64,000 nucleotides of DNA, from NCBI GenBank assembly GCA_964652755.1, contig CAZZBP010000001.1:10872-74871 (forward strand). Direction: 5' to 3'. This DNA is from an uncultured Dehalococcoidia bacterium (GTDB lineage: Bacteria > Chloroflexota > Dehalococcoidia > Lucifugimonadales > UBA826). A model generated the notes under the pieces. It was not told where the DNA came from. It saw only the letters and a program-made list of their open reading frames with translations, and searched no databases. Positions 4,998-15,468 of the stretch are shown here, in pieces (position 1 is the stretch's first letter; every line of letters starts with the position of its first letter). Both the position numbers and the translations under genes were made by a program.

Positions 4998-5012
4998 ACG
5001 CAGGTAATTCAC

Positions 5013-5195
5013 ATGGCGAAGATAGTGGTCACTCTAAGAAAAAGTACTATAGGTTATTCCCACAGGCAAAGAAGGGTAATAGAAAGTCTTGGTCTCAAGC
5101 GGATCAACCACTCGGTTGAACACCAATGTAGTCCCTCTATCATGGGTATGGTAAAAAAGGTCAGCCATCTGGTTGAAGTTGAGGAATTGAGTTAG
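5013..5195 (+). CDS. rpmD: 50S ribosomal protein L30
   Basis: A 60-aa protein with VTLRKSTIGYSHRQRRVIESLGLKRINHSV. It sits after rpsE. Confidence 0.88.
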   Translation: MAKIVVTLRKSTIGYSHRQRRVIESLGLKRINHSVEHQCSPSIMGMVKKVSHLVEVEELS

Positions 5196-5233
5196 CTAAG
5201 TCAGGTCTTAAATACGGTCTAGGAATCATTTAA

Positions 5234-5686
5234 ATGGCACTAAATCAGCATACTATTCGGCCGGCCAAGGCCAAAAAAAACAAGAAGAGAGTTGGACGCG
5301 GAGATGCAAGCGGGTCAGGCAGCTATTCGGGCAAGGGGATGAAAGGCCAGAATTCCAGATCTGGAGGTGGCGTTAGGGTTGGTTTTGAAGGAGGGCAACT
5401 CCCTTTAATAAAAAGACTTCCTTCAATGAGAGGCTTTAATAACATATTCAAACGGCAATATAATGTTGTTAATCTCGATACCCTATCCCGGATTTGCCCA
5501 GATGGGGGTGCCATCACTGCTGAGGTACTCGTTGATGCCGGTGTTTTTAAGAATACAAACAAGCACCTCAAGGTTCTTGGTAGAGGAAATGTAACGGCGG
5601 CTTTTAACATTACGGCCCATAAGTTTTCAATCGCGGCCAAAGATAAGATTGAAGCTGCGGGCGGTTCCGCTAAGGTCATCGATTAG
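5234..5686 (+). CDS. rplO: 50S ribosomal protein L15
   Basis: The sequence KKRVGRG.ASG.G..SGKG.KGQNSRSGGGVR.GFEGGQLPL is present. Confidence 0.93.
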   Translation: MALNQHTIRPAKAKKNKKRVGRGDASGSGSYSGKGMKGQNSRSGGGVRVGFEGGQLPLIKRLPSMRGFNNIFKRQYNVVNLDTLSRICPDGGAITAEVLVDAGVFKNTNKHLKVLGRGNVTAAFNITAHKFSIAAKDKIEAAGGSAKVID

Positions 5687-7027
5687 ATGGTTCGACAGTC
5701 CCCATCTGCAAGGGGTGAACAGGTCTCTCGACCTCAGCTCATCCAATCCATGCTGGACGCAATGCGCGTTCCAGAGCTTAGATCTAAAATTCTCTTCACT
5801 TTTGCAATGTTGCTCATATTTCGGTTTGTGGCGCACGTTCCAGTTCCAGGAGTTGATACTCAGGCTCTCGCGCAAGCATTTCGCCAACAGGCACTTTTGG
5901 GATTTCTAGATCTTTTTAGCGGCGGTGCCTTAGCAAATCTTAGCGTGGCGGCACTGGGGGTATATCCCTACATCACCGCCTCTATAGTTATGCAGATTCT
6001 CACTCCTGTTCTTCCATCGTTGAAGGAGTTATCCCAAGAAGGGGATTACGGTAGACAAAAGATTAACCAGTACACTCATTATCTTACGGTGCCGATCGCG
6101 TTCTTACAGGGGTGGGGACAGTTAACCCTACTCAGGTCTTCTGGAGTGCTGCCAGGAGTCGACTTTGGTTTAAACTTGCATACCTTTGCGATGATGGCTT
6201 CTTTAGTTGCTGGGACAATGTTTCTCGTCTGGCTTGGCGAGTTGATAACAGAGAGAGGATTGGGCAATGGTATATCACTCATAATATTTGGCGGTATAGT
6301 TGCTAGCTTCCCTCAGATGGTTGGCAGAGGTTTTCTCGAGAGCGATTATGTGTCAGGTCTTATGATGCTCGCAATCATAGGATTTGCGATCATCTTCGTA
6401 ATCGTTTTTTTCAACGAAGCTCAACGTAGAATACCTGTTCAATACGGTCGTAGTGTTTTTAGAGGCGGAAGGATGCAGAGGCAAAGTGGATCATCTTTTC
6501 TTCCTATCAGGGTAAATACAGCGGGAATGATTCCCCTAATATTCGCCTTCTCCATCATAATACTTCCTGGCACTATAGCGAGTTACTTTCGGAATCCTCT
6601 CGATGATGGCTTCGTTAGTACTGTTGCACAGTTTTTTACAGATACGTTGGATCCAACCAATCTGCCATATTGGATTGCAGTTTTCTTTTTGGTTGTAATA
6701 TTCACTTTCTTCTACACATTAGTTATATTTCAGCAGCAGAATCTAGCAGAGAATCTTCAAAAAAACGGGGGATTCATACCCGGAATAAGGCCTGGCTTAC
6801 CTACGCAAGATTACCTGAATCGGGTGATACTCAGAATAACTTGGGGGGGTGCGTTATTTCTAGGAGCTATCGCTATAATCCCCTACTTTGTAACCGAATT
6901 GACTGGGGTCAGAGCACTAACATTGAGCAGCACTAGTTTACTCATTATGGTCGGAGTAGCACTCGACACTATGAGGCAACTTGAAGCACAGCTCTTAATG
7001 AGGAACTACGAAGGGTTTATAAGGTAA
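5687..7027 (+). CDS. secY: preprotein translocase subunit SecY
   Basis: A polytopic membrane protein with PELRSKILFTFAMLLIFRFVAHVPVPGVD and GISLIIFGGIV. It sits after rplO. The start is uncertain (ATG 5687 or the internal Met at 5750). Confidence 0.93.
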   Translation: MVRQSPSARGEQVSRPQLIQSMLDAMRVPELRSKILFTFAMLLIFRFVAHVPVPGVDTQALAQAFRQQALLGFLDLFSGGALANLSVAALGVYPYITASIVMQILTPVLPSLKELSQEGDYGRQKINQYTHYLTVPIAFLQGWGQLTLLRSSGVLPGVDFGLNLHTFAMMASLVAGTMFLVWLGELITERGLGNGISLIIFGGIVASFPQMVGRGFLESDYVSGLMMLAIIGFAIIFVIVFFNEAQRRIPVQYGRSVFRGGRMQRQSGSSFLPIRVNTAGMIPLIFAFSIIILPGTIASYFRNPLDDGFVSTVAQFFTDTLDPTNLPYWIAVFFLVVIFTFFYTLVIFQQQNLAENLQKNGGFIPGIRPGLPTQDYLNRVILRITWGGALFLGAIAIIPYFVTELTGVRALTLSSTSLLIMVGVALDTMRQLEAQLLMRNYEGFIR

Positions 7028-7059
7028 AAGTTGAAAAGCGAATTGGGAGAAAGATCCTT

Positions 7060-7698
7060 TTGAAGATTATTCTTGTGGGGCCCCCGGGATCCGGCAAAGG
7101 TACCCAGGCAGGTCACATAGCATCTATGTTTGGCGTTACCAGTGTTTCTTCGGGAGATCTTTTTAGGGATAATTTGACGAAAAATACTGAACTGGGTAAA
7201 CTTGCAAAGGGTTTTATGGATAAAGGTGAATATGTTCCCGATGAAGTGACCATTGACATGGTTATGGGATGGATTGAGACTCCGACTCACTCCAGAGGTT
7301 TCGTGCTAGATGGCTTCCCTCGCACACTTGCTCAGGCTGAGGCTTTAGAAAGTAGGTTGCTGGGCAGTGGAGGGATAGACAGGGTCTTATTTTTTATTGT
7401 GGATGAGGATGTACTTGTAGATCGGCTGTCTGGTCGACTGATTTGCCAAGGGTGCCATATGCCATACCATAAAATATTTGCCCCTCCCTTGATAGCTGAC
7501 AAGTGCAACTCTTGCGGTGGGGAGCTTTATCAACGAGATGACGACAAAGTCGATGTAATTAGGAATCGTCTTGAGGTTTATATGCAAGAAACTGAGCCCC
7601 TTGTGAATCATTTTCGCGAGTCAGGCAATCTTCGGGAAATTGACGGGTCTTTGGGAATCAACGATGTAAAACGTGCGATCGAAAAGGCTGTGAGGTGA
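7060..7698 (+). CDS. adk: adenylate kinase with 4-Cys zinc lid
   Basis: It has the P-loop GPPGSGKGTQ and the lid CQGC...CNSCGG. It uses a TTG start. Confidence 0.93.
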   Translation: MKIILVGPPGSGKGTQAGHIASMFGVTSVSSGDLFRDNLTKNTELGKLAKGFMDKGEYVPDEVTIDMVMGWIETPTHSRGFVLDGFPRTLAQAEALESRLLGSGGIDRVLFFIVDEDVLVDRLSGRLICQGCHMPYHKIFAPPLIADKCNSCGGELYQRDDDKVDVIRNRLEVYMQETEPLVNHFRESGNLREIDGSLGINDVKRAIEKAVR

Positions 7699-7762
7699 TG
7701 CGAGAAGCGGTTCATTGTATAATATGGCTTCGCCTCTCTCAGACATTAATGAGGGTTGATTC

Positions 7763-8545
7763 ATGAATACAATTACTAGAGGAGCAGATGGAATAACAAT
7801 AAAGTCCCCAAGGGAACTGAATCTTATGAGAGAGGCGGGTAAGGTCGTTGCAGAGGCCAAAGTTGCTGTCAGGAATGCGGTTCAGCCAGGTGCTACTAGC
7901 AGAGATATGGACGCTTTAGCTGAGGAAGTAATTCGGGGAAAGGGAGCTATCCCATCCTTTAAAGGATATAAACCTACTTCGAGTAAACCTTTTCCAGCGA
8001 CGATATGTTTTTCGTTTAATGAGGAGATAGTTCATGGTATTCCCGGAGATAGAAAAATGAGAGAAGGGGATATCGTCAGCATTGACTTTGGGGCTATTGT
8101 GGATGGATTTCATGGTGACAGTGCATTCACAATGGGGGTGGGAGAAATATCGGAGAAAGCAAACCTGCTCATTAAAGCGACAAAGGAATCGCTTGATGAG
8201 GGCATAAAAAAAGCGATTCCTGGTACAAGGCTTACTAATATCTCTCATGCTGTACAAAAGTATGCTGAGGGTAAGGGGTTTTCTGTGGTTCGTGAATATG
8301 TGGGTCATGGAATTGGCAGGGCGCTTCATGAGGAACCACAGGTGCCTAACTACGGTAAACCTGGACTTGGCCCGCGACTGCGACCCGGAATGGCGTTGGC
8401 TATTGAACCAATGCTTAATATAGGTACTTGGCGTACCAAAGGCCTCGGAGATGGATGGACAATTGTGACCGCGGACGGGGAGCTATCGGCTCACTTTGAA
8501 CACACAATTGCAATAACAGAGAATGGTCCTGAAATTCTTACTTGA
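7763..8545 (+). CDS. map: type I methionine aminopeptidase
   Basis: Metal-site motifs are present: EEIVHGIP, DFGAIVDGFHGD, VREYVGHGIG, ALAIEPM, HFEHT. Confidence 0.93.
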   Translation: MNTITRGADGITIKSPRELNLMREAGKVVAEAKVAVRNAVQPGATSRDMDALAEEVIRGKGAIPSFKGYKPTSSKPFPATICFSFNEEIVHGIPGDRKMREGDIVSIDFGAIVDGFHGDSAFTMGVGEISEKANLLIKATKESLDEGIKKAIPGTRLTNISHAVQKYAEGKGFSVVREYVGHGIGRALHEEPQVPNYGKPGLGPRLRPGMALAIEPMLNIGTWRTKGLGDGWTIVTADGELSAHFEHTIAITENGPEILT

Positions 8546-8596
8546 ACATGTGTGTCAAAGAATTTTGGAATGGGCTCGCCTTTGCTAAGGAGTTAT

Positions 8597-8818
8597 ATGC
8601 CGAAAGAGAACGAATCAATAGAAGTGGAAGGGACAGTTAAAGTAGCCCTCCCAAACGCTTCATTTAAGGTAGAGTTGGCCAATGGCCACGAAGTATTAGC
8701 CTATATTTCTGGAAAACTACGGGTTAATTACATTCGGGTGCTTCCCGGTGACAGAGTTTTGGTGGACCTATCTCCATACGACCTTTCCAGGGGTAGGATT
8801 ACTTACAGGTTCCGATAA
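8597..8818 (+). CDS. infA: translation initiation factor IF-1
   Basis: The sequence IEVEGTV...[32 protein letters not shown] is present. An AAGGAG RBS lies before ATG 8597. The ORF-track start at 8552 adds 15 non-conserved residues. Confidence 0.92.
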
Positions 8819-8866
8819 GGTTTGGCCTCATTGCGGCAACAGAGATTTGGGAATAGGAGAAACTAG

Positions 8867-8980
8867 ATGAAAGTAAGCGCATCAATAAAGGTCAGATGTG
8901 CCAAATGTAGGGTCATACGACGAAAGGGCCGTGCAATGATCATTTGTGAAAACCCAAAACACAAACAACGGCAAGGTTAA
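8867..8980 (+). CDS. rpmJ: 50S ribosomal protein L36 (zinc-ribbon type)
   Basis: This ORF is not in the ORF track (37 aa). My own translation gives [45 protein letters not shown] is present. It sits between infA and rpsM. Confidence 0.9.
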
Positions 8981-9002
8981 TAAGGGAAGACGGGAGTTTG
9001 AA

Positions 9003-9380
9003 ATGGCTATAGTTTCTGGCGTAAACATACCTGACAATAAGAGGGTCGAGACTGCGCTCACAAGCATCTACGGCATAGGTCCGTCACAGTCGAAGGACGT
9101 ACTAGATAAGGCTGGGTTATTCGATAACCCCAGAGTTAGAGATCTTTCAGACGAAGACCTTAATCGTATAAGGGAAATTATTGATAAAGATAAGGTTGTA
9201 GAAGGAGATCTCCGTCGTGATGTGAATCAGAATATAAGGCGGCTTATAGATATTGGGTGCTACAGAGGCAGCAGACATCGTAGAGCTCTGCCCGTGCGAG
9301 GCCAAAGGACGAAAACCAACGCCCGATCCAAGAGGGGTCGAAGGATAGCAGTCGCTCGCCGACACACAACAACCAAATAA
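9003..9380 (+). CDS. rpsM: 30S ribosomal protein S13
   Basis: MAIVSGVNIPDNKRVETALTSIYGIG is the canonical N-terminus. GGGAG lies before ATG 9003. The ORF-track start at 8946 overlaps rpmJ. Confidence 0.93.
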   Translation: MAIVSGVNIPDNKRVETALTSIYGIGPSQSKDVLDKAGLFDNPRVRDLSDEDLNRIREIIDKDKVVEGDLRRDVNQNIRRLIDIGCYRGSRHRRALPVRGQRTKTNARSKRGRRIAVARRHTTTK

Positions 9381-9456
9381 TTGATTAATAGTAATGACGA
9401 TTTTCGTTTAAGCGAAAATAGAGCTAGCATGCAAAGAGTCTGGAGAAGTAAAATTT

Positions 9457-9843
9457 ATGGCTAGAAGACCACGGGCAAGGCGACGGGATAGAGGACCAGT
9501 ACCCATTGGTAAAGTGTATATCCAATCCACTTTCAACAACACGATCGTTACTTTAACCGATCCGACTGGTAATGCTGTCGCGTGGGGTAGTTCAGGTACG
9601 GCCGGATTCAGAGGTTCTCGTAAGTCAACAGCATTCGCTGCCCAGAGGGCCGGTGAAGATGCTGCGAAAAAAGCTATCGAACGGGGAATGAGACAGGTGG
9701 ACGCATTCGTTAGAGGTCCGGGCGCAGGCCGAGAGGCGGCGATTAGGGCGATCCAAAGTGCTGGTATATCGGTCTCGAGTATTAGAGACGTAACACCAAT
9801 CCCACATAACGGTTGTAGGCCTCCAAAAAGGAGAAGGGTCTAG
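9457..9843 (+). CDS. rpsK: 30S ribosomal protein S11
   Basis: The sequence [17 protein letters not shown]...W.S.G..GF.GSRKST.FAAQ is present. Confidence 0.94.
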
Positions 9844-9893
9844 TCGATTTGTTGAGAATGCCCACAATAGCCCCGTAAGCGGAATTCTAAGAA

Positions 9894-10694
9894 ATGCAGG
9901 AACGAAGTCTGGGAGATATACTTAACGAGGCCTTTGCGATTTTTGGCAAGGGTGGACGGAGTTTTGCCATTATAGCTTTAGTGGTATTTGCTCCGGCAAA
10001 TCTAATCACCTTCCTAGGCCCAAGAACAGAACTGCAGCATTATCTGACGGTAGGTGCAATTCCAGGGTCGGTGTTATTTTTCTACGTATTAGTTGCCGTA
10101 GTCACTTTAGTTGCAACGACTGCTGTGTGGTCAGCTGCCTCCGCCGCTGTTGGGCAACTATAGGTTACGGTAACTATAGATGTGAAAGAGTGTTTTAAAA
10201 GGGTTTCTTGGCGAATATATTCGCTTTTGTTATTATCGTTTACTCTCACAATTGGGTTAGCAGTTTGCGTTGGGGGAATAATCATCGTGATCCCTGCTAT
10301 AGTGGCTGCGGTTTTCCTGTTATTTGGTTCGCTAGCAATTCCAGCAGCGCTCTATGAAGGTCGTAAATATGTTTCTGCATTAAGAAGAAGTTTCCAGCTC
10401 GTCAGATCCATGTGGCCCAGAATATTGGGTGGAATGATTTTGATTACGCTAGTCATGTTGGGGACTGGACTTGTGATTTCAGTTCCTTCGTTGTTGCTTC
10501 TGTCACTAGATTCAGGGAGCCTATCATTGGCTTCCATGGGGATACAATATTTAGTTAGCCTTATAGCAAATTCGGCAGCCGTAACGATTTCTGCGGTTGC
10601 GGTTACACTGCTCTATTTTGACACAAGGATACGAATAGAAGGATTTGGGTTGGAAAAGCTTTCTTACGAAATAAACTACTCGGATAAAAGCTAG
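9894..10694 (+). pseudogene. polytopic membrane protein gene interrupted by a single in-frame TAG (10161-10163); candidate pseudogene or recoding or sequence error
   Basis: ORFs 9894-10163 and 10182-10694 are in the same frame, separated by TAG plus 6 sense codons. The second ORF has no RBS. The merged product would be about 266 aa with several TM segments and the C-terminal motif LLYFDTRIRIEGFGLE. From memory, that motif is typical of the GlpQ-membrane-domain-like (DUF) family. Confidence 0.6.
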
Positions 10695-10779
10695 TAGAGC
10701 TAATGATTATTAAGACACAAAATACTTTGAAACTAATATATGGAGAGGATTCCCGGTGATCAGGTCGGGTTAAGAGATT

Positions 10780-11385
10780 ATGGCTAGATATACAGGACCA
10801 ATACAGAAAAAGCTCAGAACGCTCGGCCTCGAGTCCTACGGTGTTTATGGCACCCGAAAGGAGAAACGTGTAAATCAGGGCTTCGTTCGTAGGCGAAGAG
10901 TCTCTGCCTACGGCCTTCAGCTGAAAGAGAAGCAGAAAGCAAAGTTTCTTTACGGGGTGCTCGAGAAGCAATTCAAAAATTACTATGATAAAGCGCTAAT
11001 CCAGGAAGGGGTGACCGGCGATAATCTCGTGGTTTTGCTCGAAAGACGTCTGGATAATGTCTTATATAGGTCAGGCATGTTTCTCTCGAGAAAGCAATCC
11101 CGCCAGGCAGTAAATCACGGGCATTTCAATGTGAATGGAAGAAAAGTGGATATACCGTCTTTCCAAGTTAATCAGGGGGACAAGGTGGAGTGGACTCAAA
11201 GAGGGAAAAAGACAACGCTTTTTGAAATCGCCCAGAATAATTGCAAGTCCATACCTACGCCCCATTGGATCGAGCTGGAACAAGGCGAAATGCAGGCAAT
11301 AGTAGTCACAGAACCAACCGCTGAAGATGGCGAGCCTGAGGTCGACACTACTCAGATTGTTGAACTCTACTCTGGAAATCATTAG
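10780..11385 (+). CDS. rpsD: 30S ribosomal protein S4 (no N-terminal Cys cluster)
   Basis: The sequence MARYTGP...YGLQLKEKQK.KF.YGV.EKQF..Y is present, with an S4 RNA-binding domain. Confidence 0.93.
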   Translation: MARYTGPIQKKLRTLGLESYGVYGTRKEKRVNQGFVRRRRVSAYGLQLKEKQKAKFLYGVLEKQFKNYYDKALIQEGVTGDNLVVLLERRLDNVLYRSGMFLSRKQSRQAVNHGHFNVNGRKVDIPSFQVNQGDKVEWTQRGKKTTLFEIAQNNCKSIPTPHWIELEQGEMQAIVVTEPTAEDGEPEVDTTQIVELYSGNH

Positions 11386-11412
11386 AAGTTAGACCCTAGG
11401 AGACAAACCCAA

Positions 11413-12480
11413 ATGACTATGGCAATGGATTATTCTGATATTTCGATTCTCGACGAACCCGTTGAGGAAGAAATAATACCTAACCCAACTATATCTGTCT
11501 CGGAAGCCTCAGATACATACGGCAAATTCGTCGTAGGACCTCTTGAACCCGGGTATGGGGTTACCTTAGGAAATCCTATGAGAAGAGTACTTTACAATTC
11601 ACTTCCGGGGGCAGCTATAACATGGGTCAAAATTGAAAATATCCTCCATGAATACATGACCGTGGAGAATGTTAAAGAAGAGGTCTCTGAAATTCTTCTT
11701 AATATCAAAAACATAAGGATTCGTTCTGAAACAGAATCTGAGACGCCGGCAAAGTTAAGGCTAGAAGCCAAAGGTCGTGACAATGGGCCCGTTCGTGTCA
11801 CTGCGGGAAATATTATGCCTTCCGCTGATTATAATGTAGTTAATCCTGAGCAACACATAGCGACTCTTGATTCCCCTGATGCTGAGCTAGTAGTCGAACT
11901 TAATATAGGACATGGTAAGGGCTACAAAATAGCTGACAGTAGTGACGGTTTAGCTATTGGTACTATACCGATTGACTCCGTGTTTACCCCTGTTCGTAAA
12001 GTTAACTACACGATAGAACAAACCCGTGTCGGCCACAGGACAGACTTTGAAGAACTGATTTTAGAAGTCTGGACAGATGGCTCAACTCTTCCTATCGAGG
12101 CGGTGGCAGAGGCTTCCAACATGTTAGTTAATCAGTTTTTCCTCTTCGCTAATGTCGAAAAGGCAGCCGCTGAAGGTTCTGAGGGAATATCGTTAGAGAT
12201 TCCAGCGGAAAACTACAACATGATAGTGGAGGAACTTGAACTTTCATCGAGAACGTTAAACTGTCTTAAAAGAGCAGGTCTTAATAAGGTGGGTGAGGTA
12301 ATGGAGAAATCTAGAGAAGAACTTTTAGAGATTCGAAACTTCGGTGAGAAATCGTATACAGAACTCTACGATAAGTTCAGAGAATTAGATATTCTCCCAG
12401 ATCATATGGATCCAGAAAAAATTGGATCTGTCGAAGCGAATGAAGAGAACAATGATGATCTCGTTATCAATGGGGCGTAG
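11413..12480 (+). CDS. rpoA: DNA-directed RNA polymerase subunit alpha
   Basis: The sequence YGKFVV.PLEPGYG.TLGN.MRRVL is present. The C-terminal domain carries LELS.RT.NCLKRAG...VGE. It sits after rpsD. Confidence 0.94.
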   Translation: MTMAMDYSDISILDEPVEEEIIPNPTISVSEASDTYGKFVVGPLEPGYGVTLGNPMRRVLYNSLPGAAITWVKIENILHEYMTVENVKEEVSEILLNIKNIRIRSETESETPAKLRLEAKGRDNGPVRVTAGNIMPSADYNVVNPEQHIATLDSPDAELVVELNIGHGKGYKIADSSDGLAIGTIPIDSVFTPVRKVNYTIEQTRVGHRTDFEELILEVWTDGSTLPIEAVAEASNMLVNQFFLFANVEKAAAEGSEGISLEIPAENYNMIVEELELSSRTLNCLKRAGLNKVGEVMEKSREELLEIRNFGEKSYTELYDKFRELDILPDHMDPEKIGSVEANEENNDDLVINGA

Positions 12481-12492
12481 GAGAGGTTCAAG

Positions 12493-12846
12493 GTGAGACA
12501 CCAAATCGCAGGAAGAAAGCTAGGAAGGCCAACAGCGCACAGAATTCTGATGCTTAGAAGCATGGTGACAGACTTTATACGTCATGAAACGGTCCGTACG
12601 ACGGATAGCAAAGCCAAAGAGGTTAGGCGGATGGCTGAGAAAGTGATCACGTTGGGTAAAAAAGGCAACTTACATCATAGGAGACAAGCCTCGGCTCTGC
12701 TAACAGACGAGTCGGTAGTAAAGAAAGTGTTTGACGTACTCGGGCCACGTTTTGAGGATCGAGACGGGGGATACACAAGATTGACGAAGTTAGGACCGAG
12801 AAAGGGAGACGCTTCTGAAATGGCGATCCTAGAACTAGTTGACTAG
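12493..12846 (+). CDS. rplQ: 50S ribosomal protein L17
   Basis: The sequence MRHQIAGRKLGRPTAHR..MLR.M...I.HE...TT..KAKE is present. It uses a GTG start. Confidence 0.93.
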   Translation: MRHQIAGRKLGRPTAHRILMLRSMVTDFIRHETVRTTDSKAKEVRRMAEKVITLGKKGNLHHRRQASALLTDESVVKKVFDVLGPRFEDRDGGYTRLTKLGPRKGDASEMAILELVD

Positions 12847-12864
12847 TTTTTTGAAGAGCATAAA

Positions 12865-13650
12865 TTGTTTGTCCGAAAGGTAGCTAGGGAGACAACCATT
12901 AGGTTGGCATTGACCATAGAATACGAAGGTACTCGCTACCACGGATTTCAGTATCAGGATAACGCAAGTAACATACAGGAGGAACTTGAAAACTCAATAT
13001 ATAAGTTCTCAGGTGAGGTTGTTCGTGTGAAAGCGGCGGGTAGAACTGACTCCGGAGTCCATGCCATCGGGCAGGTGATTAGTTTCGATACTGTCACAAG
13101 ACATAGCCCGGAAACGTTTGTTAGTGGACTGAATCACTATTTGCCAGAAGACATTGCGGTGAGAGAAGCTTTTAAGGTTCCGGAGTCATTTGATCCCAGG
13201 AGGGATGCTGTATCCAGAGTGTATAAATACACGATCCGTAACTCAAAGGTTCCCTCCCCCCTTCAAAGAAGAATTGCTACGGTGATTACTGCTGATTTAG
13301 ACATTTTGAAAATGAAAAAGGGCGCTTTGCTGTATTTAGGAACTCACGATTTTAGGAAATTCTCCGGTCCCATGAAAGGCGAGAGTTTTTCCAGCGTTCG
13401 AAAGATTCTTAGATCAGATCTTATGAAAAAAAACGACATTTTAGAGTACACAATAGAAGGGAATGCATTTCTGTCTCACCAAGTGCGTAGGATGGTTGGA
13501 GCCCTAGTTGATGTTGGACGTGGCGCGTTAACTTTAGATGATTTGAAACAGCTGATACGTGGGGCTGGTGATTCGGTTGCACATTCTCTTCCGGCGCAAG
13601 GACTTTGTTTGAGGGAAGTTCGATATGAAAGGTTTCCTCCCCTGATCTAA
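12865..13650 (+). CDS. truA: tRNA pseudouridine(38-40) synthase
   Basis: The sequence IEYEGTRYHGFQ.Q...IQ.ELE is present, with GRTDSGVHA containing the catalytic Asp. The TTG start is uncertain. Confidence 0.88.
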   Translation: MFVRKVARETTIRLALTIEYEGTRYHGFQYQDNASNIQEELENSIYKFSGEVVRVKAAGRTDSGVHAIGQVISFDTVTRHSPETFVSGLNHYLPEDIAVREAFKVPESFDPRRDAVSRVYKYTIRNSKVPSPLQRRIATVITADLDILKMKKGALLYLGTHDFRKFSGPMKGESFSSVRKILRSDLMKKNDILEYTIEGNAFLSHQVRRMVGALVDVGRGALTLDDLKQLIRGAGDSVAHSLPAQGLCLREVRYERFPPLI

Positions 13651-13739
13651 AAGAGTCGTAACATGATACTTAGACTAAGATATATACCGACAAAATTTGA
13701 TTTTTAAAAATAAATACAAAAAAATAGAGGAAATCAGAT

Positions 13740-14204
13740 ATGGCCATTAGACCGAGAATGCACCAACCTAAGGCCTCTGAACTCAAACCAGAATGGCACG
13801 TTATTGATGCAGAGGGTCAGACTTTGGGCCGAATTAGCAGCGATATAGCAAGGTTGTTACAGGGAAAGCATCGTTCAAGTTATGTGCCTTACTTGAATAC
13901 GGGAGATTTCGTCGTTGTTATAAACGCTGAGAAAGTTGAAGTGACTGGTAACAAGAGGGAACAGAAGATATATTACAGTCACAGTGGCTATCACGGAGGC
14001 CTTAAGGAGATCAATCTTCAACAATTGCTCGACAGTCATCCAGATCGGGTAATTAAACAATCAGTAAAGGGAATGCTGCCCAAGAATATACCTGGCAGAA
14101 AAATGCTTTCTCGTCTCAAAGTTTATGCTGGGGAAACTCATCCCCACAAGGCACAGGTCAACTGGACAGAGAAATCCAAGGAACTTGAACAGGAAAGTAA
14201 TTAG
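13740..14204 (+). CDS. rplM: 50S ribosomal protein L13
   Basis: The sequence WHVIDAEGQTLGR..S.IA..L.GKH...Y.P...TGD.VVVINAEK is present. Confidence 0.94.
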   Translation: MAIRPRMHQPKASELKPEWHVIDAEGQTLGRISSDIARLLQGKHRSSYVPYLNTGDFVVVINAEKVEVTGNKREQKIYYSHSGYHGGLKEINLQQLLDSHPDRVIKQSVKGMLPKNIPGRKMLSRLKVYAGETHPHKAQVNWTEKSKELEQESN

Positions 14205-14215
14205 GAGGAAGACCA

Positions 14216-14614
14216 TTGGTTGAGCAGGCTTATACCTACGCAATAGGTAGGAGAAAGACAGCAGTTGCACAAGTGAGACTTTATTCTGATGCTGGCCCGG
14301 TAGTAGTGGATGATAAACTTATGGAAGAAGCTTTTCCCTACAGTATCTGGCAGCAAATAATCAATGAACCATTTACGGTGACCAGTACTCAAGGCAGGTT
14401 CCGAGTTGTAGCTAAATTGTCGGGAGGTGGTGTCAACGGTAGGGCAGGGGCTCTCCGGCATGGGATCGCCCGTGCGTTGGCTGAAGTAGAGAACGGAAAG
14501 TTCAGGGGAGACCTAAAGAAGGCAGGCCTTTTAACAAGAGACGCCAGAGTAAAGGAACGTAAAAAGCCCGGATTAAAGAGGGCACGCAAAGCGAAGCAGT
14601 ATACCAAGAGGTAA
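14216..14614 (+). CDS. rpsI: 30S ribosomal protein S9
   Basis: The sequence GRRKTAVAQVRL is present, with C-terminal GLLTRDAR.KERKK.GLK.ARKA.QY.KR. An AGGAGGAA RBS lies 5 nt before the TTG at 14216. Confidence 0.93.
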   Translation: MVEQAYTYAIGRRKTAVAQVRLYSDAGPVVVDDKLMEEAFPYSIWQQIINEPFTVTSTQGRFRVVAKLSGGGVNGRAGALRHGIARALAEVENGKFRGDLKKAGLLTRDARVKERKKPGLKRARKAKQYTKR

Positions 14615-14724
14615 TACTGTTGTAAGGCTTCAGGTGAAATATCAAAGTTAGGAAACCGGCAGTCGTTTTTACAATATGAGCCACCATAAGGCTTGTTTTT
14701 GGGAATTTGATAGGATCTTAAAAA

Positions 14725-15468
14725 GTGGCAGTCTCAAGGTCATCCGGAAGCTCCGGATCTTCTAGGAAAATCGGAGAAGAACACAGGCTTTCCATGGCAA
14801 TGGAGAACTACCTGCTTTCCATACTCAGGCTCGAAGAGCAAAAAGTCCGAGTAACACCGGCTCAACTTTCAGAACATTTTAAGAGTTTGCCAATGGCTGA
14901 AGGCCTCGGCACATCACTTCCTTCCGTCAGTGCCATGATTAGGCGGATGTCACGTGAGAAGCTTGTATCCACGACTTCCAATAAGGAAGTAATTCTTACC
15001 TTGACGGGGAGAAAATCTGCAGAAAGTGTTGTGAGGAGACATAGATTGGCGGAAAGATTGGCTGTGGATGTACTCCAAGTAGATCTTAAGCACGCTCATG
15101 AGGAAGCACATAGATTGGAACATGCTATATCCCCTTATCTGGAATCCCGAGTTGTGGATATATTGAATGGTCCCACTACTTGCCCTTTCGGTCATCCTAT
15201 TCCCGGTAGTGGATACTCTCCGAATCAAGGGGTAATAAATCTCAGCAAAGCGAAAATTGGTGTCAACTATCTTGTTGATCGTGTACCTGAGGATGACTCG
15301 GATCTACTGGCATATTTTGTGGATAATAATTTCTTGCCTGACTCTCCATTGATGGTTTTAGATTCGTCAAGGGCAAGAGGAGTGATAACACTTCGTGTAA
15401 GTAATGGTGAATTGGTGTTCGGTATGGATATTTCCAAACTTATATGGGTGAGACCGGATAAAGTGTAA
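14725..15468 (+). CDS. DtxR/MntR-family metal-dependent transcriptional regulator with C-terminal SH3/FeoA-like domain
   Basis: The sequence MENYL..I..LEE.......QL is present, along with RRHRLAERL, HEEAHRLEH and CPFGHPIPG. The start is uncertain (GTG 14725 or ATG 14794). Confidence 0.8.
   Translation: MAVSRSSGSSGSSRKIGEEHRLSMAMENYLLSILRLEEQKVRVTPAQLSEHFKSLPMAEGLGTSLPSVSAMIRRMSREKLVSTTSNKEVILTLTGRKSAESVVRRHRLAERLAVDVLQVDLKHAHEEAHRLEHAISPYLESRVVDILNGPTTCPFGHPIPGSGYSPNQGVINLSKAKIGVNYLVDRVPEDDSDLLAYFVDNNFLPDSPLMVLDSSRARGVITLRVSNGELVFGMDISKLIWVRPDKV

Follow-up and report, generated by a model that had tools for sequence, protein, structure and literature searches.

A conserved membrane-protein gene in the alpha operon of SAR202-type Chloroflexota, interrupted by an amber codon within a repeat-associated cluster of substitutions

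The closest named precedent for the sequence change described here is found in quasi-palindrome mutations, for which there are the Ripley model, the thyA hotspot and lacZ QP reporters of Escherichia coli, and the short-range switching seen in yeast and apes. Template switching is an established mechanism, in E. coli as in other organisms (PMC7202029; PMC8604942); quasi-palindrome mutations increase with AZT or fluoroquinolones (PMC7202029), and multinucleotide mutations produced by homogenisation of the arms of inverted repeats have also been described (PMC8604942). As for the surroundings of the change, the reference is the canonical alpha operon, with the gene order rpsM-rpsK-rpsD-rpoA-rplQ, and for the protein concerned it is GPDPase_memb/DUF7847, a membrane domain carried by some glycerophosphodiester phosphodiesterases.

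The window analysed here is a stretch of 64,000 nucleotides from an uncultured Dehalococcoidia bacterium, in which the genes of the canonical alpha operon are present in the same order and on the same strand. Their flanks are likewise canonical, with secY-adk-map-infA-rpmJ upstream and truA-rplM-rpsI downstream. Between rpsK and rpsD lies a gap of ~0.9 kb, and the order thus reads secY-adk-map-infA-rpmJ-rpsM-rpsK, gap, rpsD-rpoA-rplQ-truA-rplM. The gap and its two borders hold the following features, given with the evidence for each:

9457..9843, plus strand: rpsK (ribosomal protein S11), ending in TAG; from the ORF list, Pfam Ribosomal_S11 on orthologues (loci L002, L019 and others) and tblastn synteny.
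9894..10694, plus strand: the whole disrupted gene, encoding a 266-aa six-helix membrane protein (GPDPase_memb/DUF7847-like) that is normally one ORF; from the translation, single-protein homologues, the intact L019 orthologue, hydropathy and an AlphaFold model.
9894..10163, plus strand: N-terminal fragment ORF of 89 aa with helices 1-2, ending at the amber codon; from the ORF list and translation.
10161..10163, plus strand: in-frame TAG, ancestral codon TTG (Leu90); from DNA comparison with L001, L005 and L012-L019.
10182..10694, plus strand: C-terminal fragment ORF of 170 aa, starting at GTG, with helices 3-6 and the conserved YFDxRxRxEGF tail; from the ORF list and a weak match to Pfam PF10110.
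10780..11385, plus strand: rpsD (ribosomal protein S4), ending in TAG; from the ORF list and Pfam Ribosomal_S4 on orthologues.

Both fragment ORFs share one reading frame, parted by the TAG at 10161-10163 and six sense codons (GTT ACG GTA ACT ATA GAT), as the initial annotation had pointed out. Inspection also confirmed its remark that the downstream ORF lacks a Shine-Dalgarno sequence, with no GGAGG-like or Shine-Dalgarno motif in the 20 nt upstream of GTG 10182; at the gene's own ATG this motif is also weak. The GTG is the ordinary codon of Val97, which reads GTA in L001 and L005. From these features a single polytopic protein of about 266 aa had been proposed, with conserved motifs at its N- and C-termini, and homologues bore out both proposals, 97-100% of the merged translation being covered by matches to single proteins of 260-282 aa. 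The best of them (E=1e-146) is 93% identical and further matches run from 61% down to 25% identity, while a 90%-identity cluster around the best match has 108 members, the full-length ones listed being all of 266 aa. Because the merged translation matches single full-length proteins, what this sequence shows is a genuinely split gene, not two ORFs that happen to lie side by side. The source gene calls do list an 89-aa and a 170-aa product, as would be expected for two genuine separate genes with independent starts, a reading that is hardly credible given that every homologue covers both halves in one ORF and that the halves form one predicted helical bundle in the AlphaFold model; the single-ORF homologues and the intact gene of L019 refute it.

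In the intact protein, hydropathy places six hydrophobic segments at about 24-42, 57-83, 108-128, 129-153, 177-200 and 220-240, and the AlphaFold model is all-helical (pLDDT 75.5, pTM 0.76). The lesion falls in this model at the end of the helix 58-92 and in the turn 93-96, ahead of the helix 97-127, in a loop crowded with family-invariant residues (G87, Q88, G93, C100, R103, W106 and R107). Against Pfam PF10110 (GPDPase_memb), the L019 protein and the fragments of the window reach 16.7-19.7 bits, below the gathering threshold of 29.6. A homologue, P0007, clears that threshold with 31.3 vs 29.6 bits and matches the window protein with E=2.8e-36 over 97% of its length; precomputed PF10110/PF25231 (DUF7847) matches are listed for P0007 and for several other relatives. 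Foldseek searches of the PDB, for which the model of a homologue with 93% identity to the window protein (P0001) was used, gave as best matches yeast PNS1 (9f63, E 0.02, TMq 0.58), human choline-transporter-like protein 1 (9qu3, 7wwb) and the sulfate permease CysZ (6d9z, 3tx3). The matches to choline-transporter-like proteins (PNS1, CTL1) and CysZ are weak, with TMq 0.39-0.58 and E >= 0.02; they consistently point to transporter-like helical bundles, which may serve as a lead only.

The relatives of this locus come from marine SAR202/Dehalococcoidia (Chloroflexota) genome bins, one single-cell genome and ocean metagenomes. The order rpsM-rpsK-X-rpsD-rpoA, where X is the membrane-protein gene, is present in all loci of sufficient length (L001, L002, L004-L009, L011, L015-L019, L021 and L022), and it is conserved in 7 genome loci and many metagenome contigs. 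Both the rpsK-X-rpsD placement and the single ORF hold down to 34-37% protein identity, and a more distant homologue, P0016 (locus L023), lies outside the operon next to an ECF sigma factor gene. The 0.8 kb between rpsK and rpsD, which had been described as an insert, is thus not peculiar to this genome: SAR202-type Chloroflexota as a group keep the gene there and differ by it, an extra membrane-protein gene between rpsK and rpsD, from the canonical operon. Since the order rpsK-X-rpsD is kept across SAR202 loci, the gene is a long-standing resident of the clade's operon, intact everywhere but here; it is presumably co-transcribed with the ribosomal protein genes. A second split lineage seemed to be given by P0006 (locus L003), whose orthologue is called as 95 + 175 aa, and was rejected, the break being only a scaffold gap of ten N at L003 2081-2090. 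This run of N splits the orthologue at almost the same place as the window stop, a coincidence that could mislead.

The origin of the stop was traced by comparison with L019, a metagenome scaffold (SAMN05991682) recovered by exact match to the window RpoA. Over window positions 8413-14889 both sequences are 99.80% identical, the 6,477 nt aligning without gaps and differing at 13 positions. L019 carries an intact 266-aa gene, whose protein is identical to that of the window except at residues 89, 90 and 93. Within the gene the differences, written from L019 to the window, are these:

10159: A>T, CAA>CTA, Q89L.
10162: T>A, TTG>TAG, L90amber.
10171: G>T, GGA>GTA, G93V, at the invariant Gly.
10193: C>T, synonymous.

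The only non-synonymous differences from L019 in the gene are hence those at 10159, 10162 and 10171, all of them within 13 nt (10159..10171). Every other relative read as DNA (L001, L005 and L012-L018) has CAATTG...GG(G/A)(A/T)C at the site, and because all of these carry CAATTG the window state is derived and the ancestral codon was Leu TTG. In this regard, the initial expectation of a conserved aromatic residue at the stop, one substitution away from a Tyr codon, held only in part: Tyr does occupy this column in distant homologues (31-37% identity, motif GQHY) and only there, whereas close homologues have Leu, Val or Met, with Leu TTG in the nearest, and the ancestral codon was not TAT/TAC.

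As for the other 10 differences from L019, 7 are scattered single-base changes, mostly transitions, and fit genuine strain divergence in a clean assembly, as expected. A second three-base cluster against L019 was observed at window 11282-11285, in rpsD codons 168-169, where the window reads ACAAGGCGAA, L019 ACGAATCGAA and the 92-93% identical relatives ACAAACCCAA, giving S4 residues QG, RI and QT, respectively. Both lineages being derived there, this position looks like a hypervariable spot; altogether, 6 of the 13 differences between the window and L019 fall in two multi-nucleotide clusters.

The amber allele is private to one contig, since among about 15 billion proteins its two products (89 and 170 aa) occur on one NCBI contig only, and a degenerate-pattern scan of JGI metagenome contigs for ancestral, derived and intermediate alleles returned two ancestral ones and no amber allele. 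The two haplotypes at the site can be written CAACTATAGGTTACGGTAAC and CAACAATTGGTTACGGGAAC.

The clustering of the lesion is not random. Were 13 differences scattered at random over 6,477 nt, three of them would come to lie within 13 nt with a probability of 0.0028. The significance comes only from the comparison with L019, because similar clusters occur against L001/L005: relative to these 92%-identical sequences the density of the cluster is unremarkable, with other clusters of 4 changes in 11 nt, and it was discarded as an argument. A close-up view of the site showed that the changes are placed within two overlapping repeats:

10158..10179, no strand assigned: inverted repeat CTATA[G]GTTAC-G-GTAAC-TATAG, with 10/10 pairs.
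10153..10163 and 10169-10179, plus strand: direct repeat, with left copy GGCAACTATAG and right copy GGTAACTATAG; from a repeat search.

The counterpart of the inverted repeat in L019, CAATT[G]GTTAC-G-GGAAC-TATAG, has 7/10 pairs and one bulge; L014 also has 7/10, and L001/L005 have 6/10. All three substitutions raise the pairing, from 7/10 to 10/10, and each new base complements the base of the opposite arm. In simulations, three random substitutions in a 13-nt span of the ancestral context gave a repeat of at least 10 pairs with P=3.7e-4. Inverted repeats of equal quality number nine in the 64-kb window, and one of them (10 pairs, one bulge) is found at about 13695-13716, in the truA-rplM intergenic region upstream of rplM. 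Folded as DNA, the hairpin at the stop has a 1-nt centre and a weak energy of -3.2 kcal/mol in the window vs -0.8 in the ancestor. The copies of the 11-nt direct repeat match at 8/11 positions in the ancestor and 10/11 in the window, and because CTATAG is self-complementary, direct-repeat homogenisation accounts equally well for the two changes on the left. By brute-force search, no single copied block or in-place inversion explains all three changes; two blocks are needed, 10158-10163 from 10174-10179 (6 nt) and 10170-10174 from 10164-10168 (5 nt), with the bulged G10163 left uncorrected. No other copy of the new 25-mer was present in the window at up to 3 mismatches, and no ectopic donor was found there.

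Scans of the region for promoters and terminators gave only consensus matches at chance level. The best promoter-like match, TTCACA-18-TATAGT (10/12), lies on the minus strand at 10157-10186 and overlaps the new CTATAG; with six promoter-like matches vs 4.5 expected, the overlap is probably due to chance.

We hold, with somewhat better than even confidence, that a very recent repeat-templated multi-nucleotide mutation knocked out the gene of a conserved SAR202 inner-membrane protein. In one complex episode of mutation, the three substitutions (10159, 10162 and 10171) would have been copied from neighbouring repeat arms, in the manner of quasi-palindrome (template-switch) mutagenesis, which brings an imperfect inverted repeat closer to perfection. 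The block 10158-10163 would thereby have come to match 10174-10179, as its reverse complement and just as well as its direct copy, and the block 10170-10174 would have become the reverse complement of 10164-10168. The change of Leu90 from TTG to TAG, of Gln89 to Leu and of the invariant Gly93 to Val would be by-products of this episode, and its outcome a fresh pseudogene in which translation would stop after helix 2 and the distal 170 codons would be left without a ribosome-binding site of their own. We infer that the event took place in vivo, not in vitro, and that the gene has lost its function. It speaks for a real mutation that pseudogenes of recent origin are common among bacteria.

Regarding the age of the lesion, comparison with L005 (92% nucleotide identity, dS about 0.27) gave a dN/dS of 0.105 over the full gene; the ratio was 0.20 in codons 1-89 and 0.05 in codons 97-266. 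The low ratio in each half indicates that both have been under purifying selection for essentially all of the divergence from L005, until very recently. Either the lesion postdates the separation of the window and L019 (0.2% divergence), or it never existed in a cell. It counts against a real mutation that null alleles are expected to be rare in nature when the gene is under strong purifying selection.

This leads to the main competing explanation, an in-vitro or assembly artefact in an organism that keeps the intact TTG/GGA, which we regard as a serious possibility though clearly short of an even chance. A polymerase might have copied the quasi-palindrome fold-back in the course of library preparation, end repair or whole-genome amplification, or the change might stem from consensus calling or polishing, after which it became fixed in the deposited contig. 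Such an origin would fit an allele that is unique to one contig, that destroys a gene under strong purifying selection and that replaces an invariant Gly, and an artefact leaves the same sequence signature as a template switch in vivo. Library preparation is indeed described to yield chimeric artefact reads with mismatched bases at inverted-repeat or palindromic sequences, yet these artefacts are reported as reads of low allele fraction and not as consensus calls (PMC10908179). Moreover, the differences in the rest of the overlap with L019 and L020 (SRR2981523) look like ordinary SNPs with no other palindrome-perfecting cluster, the contig is long (130,769 bp), and the 64 kb of the window contain no gap. 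Of the three options offered at the outset for the stop, a recent nonsense mutation and a sequencing or assembly error thus both stay viable, while the third, programmed read-through, went unsupported.

Under this third option the TAG would be decoded on purpose, as pyrrolysine, by a suppressor tRNA or with the new hairpin as read-through signal, in a gene that shares its transcript with highly expressed ribosomal genes, and we judge it very improbable. Its only support is the in-frame stop itself together with a small hairpin that includes it, a weak one that was absent in the ancestor. TAG 10161-10163 is the window's only in-frame TAG joining two long open stretches of one protein. No stop is present at this column in the intact relatives read (over twenty distinct sequences, from the 108-member cluster and from more distant matches), including the 99.8%-identical L019 with its TTG; a survey of related genomes, which had been suggested as a check, found a sense codon in all of these intact relatives and a single gene between rpsK and rpsD. 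TAG is, moreover, the ordinary stop of rpsK, X, rpsD, rpoA and rplQ and of the gene before secY, at normal C-termini, so that it terminates the neighbouring ribosomal genes. The stop arrived in the company of two other damaging substitutions, among them the Gly>Val at an invariant position. Neither a tRNA of any kind in the 64-kb window nor an Rfam match in 5000-15000 was found.

It is likewise highly unlikely that the allele is real and still functional, either by re-initiation at GTG 10182 with association of the fragments in the membrane or by low-level near-cognate read-through of TAG-G. The GTG lies in frame 18 nt after the stop, and in the model the lesion sits in the turn between the helices 58-92 and 97-127, a loop that would probably be the most break-tolerant position for a split polytopic protein. 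On the other hand, the GTG is preceded by no Shine-Dalgarno motif and is replaced in L001/L005 by GTA, which is not a start, the internal start being thus not conserved; G93V strikes an invariant residue in a loop rich in invariant positions; and no relative is split, the one apparent case (L003) being the 10-N scaffold gap. A broader proposal, that the amber allele is tolerated with a working protein, as fragments or by read-through, and that placement in the alpha operon may reflect an undescribed membrane function linked to translation or the ribosome, is a long shot.

Whether knocked out by a recent repeat-templated mutation, as we favour, or misread, the locus is best annotated as one disrupted membrane-protein gene (a pseudogene or suspected error), and not as two hypothetical proteins or a candidate for recoding. 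The main value of the case is in quality control. It may also illustrate cleanly, in nature and in an uncultured marine bacterium, how a nonsense codon arises from a repeat-templated multi-nucleotide change, and substitutions clustered in this way should not count as independent events. The conserved position of the membrane-protein gene in the alpha operon is a mildly interesting curiosity, and an uncharacterised six-helix protein, presumably co-expressed with ribosomal proteins, makes a reasonable target for study in the abundant deep-ocean SAR202 clade.

Set beside the known systems, the window protein shares with GPDPase_memb/DUF7847 the polytopic helices, a conserved E-G after helix 4 and the C-terminal YxDxRxRxEG[FY] tail. 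It differs in standing alone, without a phosphodiesterase domain, in staying below threshold in Pfam and in having a fixed place between rpsK and rpsD. With programmed amber read-through and pyrrolysine decoding the locus shares one feature, an in-frame UAG within a conserved ORF, whereas the window stop is not conserved, no decoding machinery is seen in the 64-kb window and TAG is an ordinary stop nearby. With quasi-palindrome template switching it has in common a prior imperfect repeat that becomes more perfect, a cluster of changes in one lineage, new bases that complement the opposite arm and coding damage as a by-product (PMC7202029, PMC8604942). Compared with that precedent, the window site is set apart by changes in both arms, by two short patches with the bulged G kept, and by a 1-nt centre, a weak stem and a self-complementary left patch (CTATAG).
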